Below, in pieces: positions 8,925 through 35,959 of a stretch of DNA of 64,000 bases. Numbering within the stretch: position 1 is the first letter of the stretch; each line of letters begins with the position of its first letter. The notes beneath the pieces were generated by a model. The model was not told the origin of the DNA and did not search any database. It saw only the letters and a program-made list of their open reading frames with translations. This DNA comes from an uncultured Chthonomonadaceae bacterium. GTDB lineage: Bacteria; Armatimonadota; Chthonomonadetes; Chthonomonadales; Chthonomonadaceae. Both the position numbers and the translations under genes were made by a program. The stretch spans positions 224,001-288,000 of the forward strand of contig CAWIEK010000049.1 in NCBI GenBank assembly GCA_963835065.1, given 5' to 3'.

Positions 8925-9132
8925 TCGGCCTCACAAGAAGCGACGTTGAGATATATTTCAGTATGGAGCGCAGAGGAAACCACAGATTAACGGCCTCATC
9001 CCATGCGCGGCAAACGCTCGTAGTGTAAATCCTGGCATTTCCACAACCGGCGCGAACGTGGAAGTGTCTACGTCGTTCTGCTGCAAAATACTCGTAAGTT
9101 CATCCATGATTTGACCAATATTTCGATTCGAG

Positions 9133-12100
9133 TCAATATATATTCAATTTTTGCCCACGCGATTGAAACAGAGATTCAAGCCGCTGTTTTTCCTTGTGGC
9201 TAATGGCTGTGTTGTTAAGATTGATTTCTTGTAATTTATTTAAGTTTTCAAGCGGTGACAAGTCCATAATCCGTGTATTATCAAGATACAAATTTTCAAG
9301 GTTCTTCAAACCTTTAAGCGGTGTCAGATCTATGATCCGGGTATTGTCAAGAAACAACGCTTGCAAGTTGTTCAGGTTAGCCAGAGGGGTGAAGTCGGTG
9401 ATCTGTGTATTGGTAAGAGATAGCCTCTGTAAGCCAGGCATGTTGCAAGGAGTTTGCAGTTCGTGATCTGAGTATTATCAAGAAACAGAGATTGCAACTT
9501 ATTCAGCCCTTCAAGGGTAGTTAAATCTGTGAGTTGAGTATCATCAAGATACAACTCATGCAAATTGTTCAGATTAGCAAGAGGGGTAAAGTTCGTAATG
9601 TGTGTTTTGGTAAGAGACAGCCTCTGTAAGCCACTCAAACCAGAGATGGGTGTCAAGTCCATGATTTGAGTATCATCAAGATATAGTGATTGCAAGCTGC
9701 TTAGACTGGCAAGAAGTGTGAAGTCCGTAATCCGAGTTTGATCAAGGTATAGCGAATATAAACCACTCAGACTTGCAGCGGTGCAAGATTATGAACATAG
9801 GGGCGGTACTCTTTCGCACTATCGAAATGTCCTTGAAGTTGTTGAAGTACGAGTGGAATGGTAAGAACATTGACGGTTTGCGCCATAACAGCGGCGGGTA
9901 GCACGTTTGCCAATTCATCAAGGACAGCAGGAGGAGTATCACGACGCAGAAACTTCCGTAACGCGGCGATTGCCTGTTCACTGTTCATTTTTGCAAGGCC
10001 CCGTGCACAAGCTATCTCTACCTCCACCGACATGTCGCTGCGCCAAGCCAGATGTTCTACGGCAATCTCGCCGCATTCCGCCAGCGCTTTCGCTCTGTCC
10101 ACTGTGTTGACCGGCAGCATCTGTGCTCGTATTGCATCCAGTTTTTGCATAACTTCCGAACGCCAACGGATAACGTACACGCGACGCTGTTTTCAGCGCC
10201 ATCACGTCTCGCCGAGCGCTGTCTTTGCTGTTCCGTCCCGGCAGGTCCAGAATGGCCTGTACGAGTTTCGATCCGAACTCCTCGTCAATGGCGAACGGCG
10301 GCGGCGAACAGCAGGACGGGTTCCCATCGCGCCAAATTCTCCGATTCGACCTTTTGTGCTAGAAAAGCGTACTCGTTGCGCCGCACAAACATCAGCGACG
10401 CCAGGTAATCGCGCAGGGCGTTGTGAACAAATTCCACGTCGTCGTTGCGGCACATCCGCAGCAGCCCGCTACGCTCCAGCAGCCCTTGCAGCACTTCCTC
10501 AGCCCTGTTTCTATCCTGCGCGCCGCCCGGATTTAGCGCGTCCGCGATCTGCACGACTGCGCTTTGCCGGGGAATAACGGTAATTTCCTTTTGCACCACA
10601 TCGTAGGCCAGATTACGCGCCAGCAACAGGCGCATATCTTCATTGAGCGCCGAATACGCGGGGAGCGAGTCCAGCGCCTTCACTTCAGTTAGCCTGTCTC
10701 GATCCCACAACAGCATTTTGCAGGCGCTTTCGCACAGGTCGCGCAGGTTTTCCGGCAGGTTGGTTCGGTACACGCGGTTCAGGGCGCACAAGAGGGCGCA
10801 CAGCAGGGGATTGGAAGCCAGATGCGCTGCCGAATGGTTGATTTCCAGTTCCCGCAGCAGTTGTTTGCGCTTTTGTGCCAGTTTGTGCAGTTTTTCCCGT
10901 GAACCGCCAAGCTGCCGCGCAACCGCGCGATGCCATCGGCGCACGAACTGCCGTTTGCCCTCCGGCGTCAGGTTACGGACGTTGTATTCGGCAAATCCTG
11001 CCTGTTCCAGCGCTTCCGGCTTCAGCGCTTCCGGGCGGCTTGTCGCCACGAACACATTGCCCCCGCCATAATCGTCAATCAAGCCCTGTATCCACGTCAG
11101 CGCCTTGCGCCGTTGCGCCCCCGACAGCTCATCCAGTCCATCCAGCAGCAGCAGTCCGCGTCCGGCTTGCAGAACGCTTTCCGCCCATCCGTCCGGGGCC
11201 TTCAGCCGGGTGGCTCCATGCCGGTGCAGTTCGTCCAGTGTGGGAAACGCGCCCGTTGGAAAGTCCCGCAGCCGCACAAAAAAAGGAACTTTATCGCGCC
11301 ATGCCAGCGCGTCCGACCGTCGCGGCTGCATCTTCTCATGCCGTTCGCCCGTCATCGAAGTATTCGGCGAGAATACAAGCCTATCCTGACCGTGCGCGCG
11401 TGTCGGTTCCCGCGCCGCCTCGATAGCCGCCCACCGCATCAGCGTAGTTTTGCCGCACCCTGCCGGTCCAACGAGCAGGGCGCGCGGCGTGTCGGCGGGC
11501 AGCCCATCCAGCAGGCTTTCGGCGGATACATCGCCGGACGCTTCCGCATCGAAGCGGCCCCGCGCCAGCGTCAGCGTGACGTATGCAACCGACAGCATTT
11601 GCTTGGTGGATTCTTGTTCAAGGTCCGGCCTTTCGATAAACAGTTCCACCCAATCCAATTCTTTCGCCACCGCCGCGCGATACTTCGGCTCAAAGGCCAG
11701 GAACTCCTCACCCTTCGCGCCCATTAACTGCCGAATCGCCTCTCCATGCCACTTGTGTTCCCCGCGCTGCTGATTGTAGGCGTCCATAAACCAGGTCATA
11801 AAACCCGGCATCTCGTGCAGCCTGTCCCACAGCGCCTCGACAATCTGCGTGAGCAGGGCATCGTGAAAATTGCGGTCATGGCCGGAAATAACGGCAAGTT
11901 CCGTCCGGTTTTCTCTACACCATGCCTGCACCACCGCCGGAGACTTCCGCCAGTTATCCATCAGGCTTTCAAACGAAAACCCACATTGCAGCGTGTTCGC
12001 AGCCACCGCCTCAACCGCATGGATATTGACTTTCCCGCCGGTTTGCTCCGCAAGCGAAGCAAGCTGCTTCAAAATGTCCTGCCGCGTGACTTCCAGAGGC

Positions 12101-12258
12101 CCCAGAATATCTTTCGCCCCGGCCTTTCGGTTCCTGTAAGCGCTTGTGAGGTCTACACCCCCGTCAAAAACGCCCTTCACGTCACCAATCGCGAGGGAAA
12201 CAAGCATTTTAAGCACCGTGCCGCCAACTGCGGACAAAGCATTTTCCGGTTTAGACAT
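9133..12258 (-). CDS. NACHT NTPase with C-terminal leucine-rich repeats (bacterial NLR-like), split by about 4 frameshifts
   Basis: Walker A GPAGCGKTT, Walker B LLLLDGLDE, TSRP, NPLL, FVHNALRDYLA; continues through ORFs 9978-10205, 9767-10180, 9372-9695 and 9133-9441 containing about nine 22-aa LRRs (LxxLxLxxTxIxDLTPL). Confidence 0.85.
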
Positions 12259-12553
12259 AATTGGCTACGCTCTTTCAACAGCAGACCGGTAGACAAACCA
12301 CCGAAACTTTGCACAATCCCATGTTTACAGGACAATCGGCCGCAGGCCTAACAACCGGTATTTTATATACCGGGTTCTGTGAGCAGACTTACAAACAGAA
12401 AAAAGAGCCAAACAGCGCAGAAAAAATGAACCTTTTACCCCTGCTCACCTGTCTAATTAGTACAAACGTCTACTGTTCAGGTGTTATACCCACAGGAAGG
12501 TTGAACGTTCGCAGTTCCTATCAACTATCAACTACCAACTATCAACTAAGAAG

Positions 12554-12696
12554 GGAGGTGCCAGTCCTATGTTTCACCCCTCCCGCTCGCCCTGACGCTG
12601 CTGAGGTCACGATGCCTCTCTCCTACAACCAGACACAACGAGACATCGGGCTGGAAGCGCTGTATTGCCAAGATTTCGACGATGACTCTACATACT
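12554..12696 (+). ncRNA. Unknown repeated element copy 1: SD + micro-ORF MFHPSRSP* (12569-12595) + conserved structured segment
   Basis: 12583-12696 aligns without gaps to 35846-35959 at 104/114 identity. Confidence 0.5.
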
Positions 12697-12717
12697 CTTT
12701 TTTCTGCCTACCGCTGC

Positions 12718-35634: not shown

Positions 35635-35754
35635 GTATATTAATGTTAAGGAAGAGCGGGCCGCGTTGCGGCCCGCAATTTTTTCAGGGGCGTACGCCCC
35701 TGAAAAAATTGCGCTTTAGGAGCATCATTCTGTCAACTATACATTATCGGACGT
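35635..35754. repeat. Double-hairpin element with XerC/dif-like arm, copy 1
   Basis: 9-bp hairpin 35656-35676, perfect 40-bp palindrome 35674-35713, TACATTATCGGACGT at 35740-35754. Confidence 0.65.
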
Positions 35755-35817
35755 ATCTCTGAGCGATTTTAGCGTTTACTTACTCAAGAAGGAAGGCTCA
35801 AGAAGGAAAGAAGGAAA

Positions 35818-35959
35818 GGAGGTGTAACAAAATGCCTGTCTATATCCGCCCGCCCTGACGCTGCTGAGGTCACGACGCCTCACCCCTACAATCTGACACA
35901 ACGAGACCTCGTGCTGGAAGCGCTGTATTGCCAAGATTTCGACGATCTCTCTACATACT
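35818..35959 (+). ncRNA. Unknown repeated element copy 2: SD + micro-ORF MPVYIRPP* (35832-35858) + conserved structured segment
   Basis: 91% identity to 12583-12696; same SD / 8-codon / UGA register. Confidence 0.5.

Follow-up and report, generated by a model that had tools for sequence, protein, structure and literature searches.

Two copies of a repeated unit

The window, a 64,000-nt stretch of one contig from the genome of an uncultured Chthonomonadaceae bacterium (G000; two other genomes of the same genus are referred to as G001 and G002), contains two + strand copies of a repeated unit. A preliminary description of this DNA had reported that positions 12583-12696 and 35846-35959 align without gaps with 104 of 114 nucleotides identical, and that both copies begin with a Shine-Dalgarno (SD) sequence, an ATG and eight codons closing with CCC-TGA; alignment and layout are both confirmed. 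In copy 1, GGAGGTG (12554..12560) precedes by 8 nt the ATG (12569) of the micro-ORF MFHPSRSP* (12569..12595, CCC-TGA-C, stop TGA at 12593), and in copy 2 GGAGGTG (35818..35824) lies 7 nt from the ATG (35832) of MPVYIRPP* (35832..35858, stop TGA at 35856). In copy 1, the first base of the stop lies 10 nt ahead of a hairpin, P1 (GAGGU-CACGAU-GCCUC, 12603..12618; 35866..35881 in copy 2), followed by a C/A-rich linker (12619..12639, 20-25 nt long across copies) and by a 3' domain (12640..12694; 35903..35957 in copy 2) in which the weak helices P2 (GAG/CUC) and P3 (UGGAA/UUUCG) close an invariant loop, GCGCUGYAUUGCCA (12657-12670; 35920-35933). Both copies finish with an invariant CATA (12691-12694 in copy 1, where a T-rich tail follows).

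The unit begins approximately 150 nt upstream of the block first aligned. Copy 1 has there an A-tract resembling an UP element, visible as A-rich columns in the promoter alignment (12397..12426), a predicted ECF-sigma-type promoter (12428..12456; -35 GAACCT at 12428-12433, 17-nt spacer, -10 GTCTAA at 12451-12456), a second conserved GTCTAC (12468..12473, placed 16-21 nt after the -10 across copies) and, within a variable 5' region, an (AACTATC)n heptamer repeat (12518..12548). Copy 2 is 5'-truncated, with neither the ECF promoter nor a sigma-70 match found upstream. Intergenic DNA throughout the genome is rich in heptamer repeats, such as (AACTATC)n and (TTCATCC)n, which also occur within the 5' region and the tail of many copies of the element.

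Copy 1 is flanked by a NACHT gene and a PhyH gene, and copy 2 comes after proS. Window positions 9108-12717 form a 3.6-kb stretch, with the NACHT gene and leucine-rich-repeat-like fragments, that ends in copy 1 and is missing at the orthologous site of G002; there, a small gene, whose start remains at window positions 8978-9107, comes straight after PhyH. After proS (35656-35760), a double GC hairpin, which we take to resemble a recombination-site-like repeat, and then ATTATCGGACG are common to G000, G001 and G002; the three sequences diverge just past this point, where copy 2 was captured.

Family size and distribution

The preliminary description had proposed a search of the genome and the phylum with BLASTN and Infernal. 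In G000, blastn (E<=1e-5) and an nhmmer profile (E<=0.01) returned the identical set of 162 copies, the weakest scoring 124 bits, so that the repeat is not a chance similarity; the median pairwise identity over the block from the SD to the end is 83%. A covariance model built from 40 copies and run on 68 genomes of the class found, besides G000, 47 copies in G002, 13 in G001 and none in the other 65, and blastn against 40 relatives gave matches in the two congeneric genomes only. Among 151 genomes drawn from the phylum there was, outside G000, just one weak match (E=0.26). A 16-nt pattern searched in 5 of 64 parts of the genome contigs gave one full match among 100 loci rescored with the covariance model (picked from 111, with seven titled Chthonomonadaceae excluded); metagenome and viral contigs contained no exact match, and blastn against phages and plasmids matched the heptamer repeat and nothing else. 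Rfam, at gathering and at E-value thresholds, yielded only tRNAs and chance matches, with no family at the gathering score, in line with the earlier failure to recognise it as a known ncRNA. Among the genomes searched, the element is restricted to one genus.

Constraint on the micro-ORF

The micro-ORF was scored in 155 G000 copies, leaving out seven with hairpin-loop variants. All 155 retain the stop (150 TGA, 5 TAA) and a final proline codon, for which CCC, CCT and CCG are used, and the residue at -3 is Arg in 146, His in 6 and Leu in 3. The first ATG past the SD is in frame in 148 copies, in four length classes, out of frame in 5 and lost in 2; a separate tally over all 162 copies counted 155 as intact. 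In G001 and G002, proline comes last in 39 of 41 copies; each of its four codons is used, as are four Arg codons and each of the three stops, and a G001 subfamily has 15-codon ORFs with GTG or TTG starts that still end in RPP*, one of them with a premature stop. A length of exactly eight codons, as claimed from the window, is therefore true of the two copies there but gives way to 8-11 codons in the G000 family and up to 15 in G001; SD, frame and the x-Pro-stop ending are kept across copies. As background, Pro is the last residue in only 525 of 6270 crude gene calls, and R-x-P the ending of 36. The codon changes, stop swaps and frame-keeping indels seen across copies indicate translation, and that the unit is translated is probable, much more so than any single purpose for it. 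The codon-level constraint on a C-terminal R-x-P or Pro-stop resembles that of arrest uORFs of the TnaC and RAPP type; the Pro (or Gly) that the RAPP motif has in the A site after R-x-P is replaced by a stop in all scored copies.

Recoding at CCC-UGA, suggested in the preliminary description as a +1 frameshift and extendable to read-through or selenocysteine insertion, is extremely improbable. In 129 of 157 scored copies the +1 frame stays open as far as the 3' end, recoding signals have a similar arrangement of spacer and hairpin, and a tRNA-Sec is present in the genome (as is one tmRNA, with the tag ANTNQYALAA). However, neither the shift site nor UGA is invariant, given the TAA and TAG stops and the CCG, CCA and CCT codons; no downstream frame is conserved, the 20-25-nt linker breaking it with no constant gene beyond; variation does not fall on third positions of the +1 frame; and the read-through frame is open in just 60 of 157 copies.

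Promoter

The G000 copies share a promoter consensus consisting of the A-tract, GAA[AC]C[CT]TT, a 16-17 nt spacer and GTCTAA, which is present in 143 of 162 copies under a strict pattern and in 152 under a relaxed one. The motif has 136 matches inside copies and 12 elsewhere in G000, against 13 for a reversed control. On the terminal branches of a tree of 139 complete copies, the promoter spacer underwent 21 changes per site and the boxes 5-6, with parts of the boxes, like the ATG and the stop, fixed by the filter and uninformative. The motif is a predicted ECF-type promoter at the level of the family, with 1-7 or more matches in 33 of the 68 class genomes and controls near zero. When 20 such sites were fetched in relatives, several proved to lie upstream of genes for an ECF sigma, an RpoD-like sigma or BlaI/CopY-like proteins, and at the 20 sites in other genera no element stood behind the promoter. 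The G000 orthologues of two of these genes, the RpoD-like sigma among them, retain the motif; the orthologue of the candidate ECF sigma has none upstream. We infer the identity of the sigma factor that would read the promoter from its apparent autoregulation in two relatives. One copy of the element adjoins the candidate sigma gene, which lies at G000:C35:29611-30255, an adjacency that is not common to G001 and G002 and was discarded as a meaningful link.

The second GTCTAC occurs within one mismatch in 144 of the 152 promoter-bearing copies and, as a lead only, resembles half of the palindromes found upstream of BlaI-family genes. Such a palindrome, G[AT]CTAC-N4-GT[AC]G[AT]Y, stands upstream of BlaI/CopY-family genes (L202, L204, L210, L212, L223, L229) and in two relatives overlaps the same ECF-type promoter; the order promoter-GTCTAC-SD in the element resembles those blaI promoters.

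The ECF-type promoter is missing from 9 of 36 copies in G001 and G002. Eight promoter-lacking copies include a second shared upstream class, so that the conserved unit comprises the SD, the ORF and the RNA behind it. This second class has CCTTCTAAA ... AACATATAG or TTAATAT (L003, L006, L009, L012, L044, L035, L043, L050) and is accompanied in G001 by a long 5' hairpin and the 15-codon ORF; its reading as an NrdR box, by the consensus for that box, found no support in G000.

RNA structure and the 3' domain

Three stems had been proposed from the window, of which only GAGG/CCTC is well supported, as P1 (GAGGY/GCCUC). Its positions are paired in 99% of alignment cells, with compensatory and wobble changes (A-U/U-A, U-G/C-G) as well as a fully substituted variant, and it keeps its 10-nt distance from the stop in 150 of 155 copies while the linker behind it varies. 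The TGAC/GTCA stem over the stop does not survive, having a broken G-C pair in 14 of 40 rows, nor does the 11-bp stem CACGAYGCCTC/GAGACMTCGKG, which is 77.5% paired and not above shuffles. P2 and P3 are paired in 95% and 86% of the alignment, respectively, and are weak; the G-U/G-C exchanges in P1-P3 hold only for the + strand as RNA. No further conserved helix or pseudoknot of at least 4 bp besides P1 and P3 was found in the alignment. The SD is predicted to be paired in the free RNA (0.98), and pairing of the 3' tail with the SD is no better than for shuffled tails.

The 3' domain folds with no more than ordinary stability (mean z -0.04 against shuffles; pairing probability of P2/P3 0.2-0.3), so that a rigid fold able to block rescue finds no support beyond P1, and the invariance of the domain lies mainly in its sequence, above all in the loop and the CATA end. 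On the terminal branches of the tree, spacers changed 10-23 times per site and the 14 non-wobble loop sites not once; about 55 positions past the ribosome footprint likewise show zero change.

This invariance bears on the possibility that the copies are sibling sRNAs, acting in trans or binding a protein, with the loop of the 3' domain as the effector and a paused ribosome that merely stabilises or processes the RNA, a role with precedent in dual-function and attenuator-derived sRNAs. The unchanged positions beyond the footprint speak for it, as do the arrangement as dispersed paralogues with their own predicted promoters and the association of one core with differing promoters, typical of sibling sRNAs in the part of PMC11697453 drawn on here. 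The sibling families known from that material, however, have 2-15 copies, not 160; only three full complements of the loop exist in G000 outside the copies; and the peptide ending and the stop-to-hairpin spacing are tighter than mere coverage by a ribosome requires. We regard an sRNA family as unlikely.

Mobility and gene conversion

Sixteen of the 162 copies lie within CAGGG-type inverted repeats at both ends, nine of them with a 10-bp target duplication, and identical ends occur on intact ISAs1 elements in G002, confirmed as ISAs1 by PF13808. No ISAs1 transposase was found in the 92% complete assembly of G000. Judged by these ends, the 16 copies, and only these, ride in an ISAs1-derived MITE. 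A general search for terminal inverted repeats and target duplications returned 12 and 28 copies, against 3-13 and 9-28 in shuffled pairings, and since the remaining copies have no shared ends or duplications above this control they are not MITE-like. In G001 and G002, the element is absent from both sites that it occupies in the window. Four sites are shared with G002 on both flanks and carry species-specific alleles, and the 5' modules there often differ as well, a pattern indicative of gene conversion. Conversion is able to remove new mutations even where single copies are not under selection; it would weaken the case for selection on each copy and leaves the site-specific pattern across three species unaffected. 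Some element sites are older than the split of G000 and G002.

Of the earlier notion of a small mobile RNA family, mobility thus stands in part, as movement of DNA; mobility as RNA finds no support, because the promoter travels with the unit. A retro-mobile RNA (SINE-like, retron or group II) was rejected on the same ground, the upstream promoter being included in 152 of the 162 copies. Reverse transcriptases are present, retron-like and CRISPR-linked, none of them beside a shared copy: a retron-like enzyme of 476-503 aa is encoded in all three genomes (L257:1288-2718, L255, L256), with a SWIM/BRCT-like gene as its neighbour in G000 and G001, and a CRISPR-type one lies beside a Cas1-like ORF (G000:C49:681660, L254). 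A separate hairpin MITE of 80-100 bp with GGGTCYGTAAATCTAT-type ends has 38 matches in G000, and about 45 copies of the element are flanked by its halves. Some copies (G000:C14:10060, C3:217503, C46:161691) are bracketed by imperfect direct repeats, 30-50 bp long, of the sequence around them, an arrangement that suggests homology-assisted insertion.

The element might accordingly be a selfish or hitch-hiking repeat, spread by MITE shells and conversion, with features that aid its own spread or are homogenised and that bring the host no benefit. The shelled copies, the empty window sites and the species-specific alleles all fit such a repeat. Yet about 90% of copies are without a shell and do not exceed the shuffled control for ends or duplications, some sites predate the G000/G002 split, and in three species changes cluster at third codon positions, wobble pairs and spacers, none of which DNA transposition needs; we find a purely selfish repeat distinctly unlikely.

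Genomic context and spacing

Context was taken from crude gene calls (74% coding). The preliminary description had noted that neither copy has a + strand gene downstream and that each faces a convergent gene. This is true of both window copies, but across the G000 family the convergent arrangement applies to only 100 of 161 copies; the other 61 do have a same-strand downstream neighbour, these neighbours are unrelated, and no gene is constant. The inference that the unit stands alone and is not an ordinary leader is supported, and the constant regulated gene that arrest uORFs have in the same transcript is absent. In gaps between tandem genes, copies run antisense to their neighbours more often than sense (62 against 26; p=1.6e-4), as would be expected if the copies fire.

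The copies are more evenly spread than chance would have them: 4 gaps between neighbours fall below 10 kb against 26 expected, a value reached in 0 of 2000 random sets, and a control repeat is, by contrast, clustered. For a selfish repeat, this could reflect target immunity or the loss of close repeats. It also fits a role at the level of DNA, in which the copies would be evenly spread binding sites, or some 150 promoters acting as decoys that titrate one ECF sigma, and the 3' segment protein-binding DNA; nearly all promoter-motif matches in G000 sit in copies, and the 3' domain folds weakly. A DNA role would, however, leave the codon pattern unexplained, the exchanges in P1-P3 are kept only as + strand RNA, and no replichore bias links the copies to a GC-skew strand (46 vs 53), which makes such a role very unlikely.

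Evidence for expression

In metatranscriptome run X19, one 197-nt contig (depth 5.6) lies wholly within the predicted transcript of a related copy, from the 5' variable region to about 15 nt short of the 3' end and with no flanks. It is a weak hint of transcription, shallow and strandless, and could be DNA or a break at a repeat. Each of the sequencing runs screened contained less than 0.2 of the element words; X22 had nothing and X20 may be DNA.

A possible ribosome-pausing small gene

We tentatively favour, with somewhat less than even confidence, the view that the copies are stand-alone small genes transcribed by an ECF sigma, whose RNA would hold a ribosome paused at x-Pro-stop and so act as a brake or a store. 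A stress-induced ECF sigma would transcribe the copies, and the strong SD would load a ribosome onto the 8-11-codon ORF, where termination would be slow owing to the C-terminal Pro, Pro-Pro or R/H-x-Pro and the pyrimidine after the stop. With P1 at its leading edge, the ribosome would be shielded from 3' trimming of the RNA and from rescue by tmRNA. The 3' domain would serve as the binding site for a partner, either the ribosome or a protein, and simultaneous induction of many copies would sequester ribosomes and tRNA-Pro. The stalling and braking steps are drawn by analogy from precedents in the portions of the literature used here: C-terminal Pro-Pro impairs or slows termination, in Escherichia coli a paused ribosome covers the mRNA as far as +12 beyond the A-site codon, and trimming of the 3' end up to the ribosome edge comes before tmRNA rescue (PMC3834316), R-x-P occupies the P site in the R/HxPP and RAP/P stall motifs (PMC10951233), and overexpression of TnaC depletes or traps tRNA-Pro and inhibits growth (PMC11890864). 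That some copies have the same core behind a second promoter class also counts in favour of paused-ribosome small genes. Such genes leave the even spacing unaccounted for, and a copy number that varies 12-fold within the genus, together with absence from 65 class genomes, is unusual for a core stress device. A more far-reaching version, possible though doubtful, is a new class of ribosome-capturing RNA, induced by an ECF sigma, in which the micro-ORF parks the ribosome, the invariant 3' domain docks or shields it, and about 160 evenly spaced copies form a dosage-controlled ribosome store or dormancy switch.

If the pausing of ribosomes on these transcripts is real, stalling would itself be the product of a unit of ~250 nt, and RNA would offer a means of slowing ribosomes down or storing them. 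The family would also illustrate how a MITE and gene conversion spread a probably functional RNA gene, and how the predicted regulon of one sigma factor is taken over by a repeat.

Comparison with known systems

Each part of the element has a precedent; their combination, a stall-type minigene with an ECF promoter, an invariant 3' RNA and 160 copies, is without match in Rfam, and no description of such an element was found in the open-access literature. As to mobility, we compared it with the family features of ISAs1-derived and promoter-carrying MITEs. The 16 shelled copies (450-480 bp, ISAs1 ends, 10-bp duplications) are like ISAs1-derived MITEs, whereas the cargo is mostly shell-free and conserved like a functional gene.

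With TnaC, PepNL and YbeL-PP, as presented in the parts of PMC11890864 and PMC3834316 used here, the element shares a short ORF, a C-terminal Pro or Pro-Pro before the stop and a strong SD. Those peptides regulate a downstream gene, whereas the element has no constant gene, and it differs further in its 8-11 codons, 160 copies, own promoter and conserved 3' RNA segment. ApdA, ApdP and SecM (RAPP, R/HxPP; PMC10951233) have in common with it R/H-x-P at the C-terminus of the chain; the element differs in that a stop and not a Pro codon would be in the A site, and lacks both a downstream secretion-machinery gene and a long N-terminal domain. The arrest peptides described in the same portions of PMC3834316, PMC10951233 and PMC11890864 all act in cis on a neighbouring gene.

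The FopS, Qrr, LhrC and CsrB siblings (PMC11697453), and dual-function sRNAs, are likewise dispersed paralogous RNA genes with their own and differing promoters. FopS has 12-15 copies in that account; the element has tenfold more, a conserved stall-type micro-ORF and no known target or binding protein. Finally, toxic minigenes that sequester peptidyl-tRNA share with the element the SD and a very short ORF, and possibly service as a tRNA or ribosome sink; they are phage or artificial units of 2-8 codons without a conserved RNA domain, unlike the element, in which the micro-ORF is joined to one.
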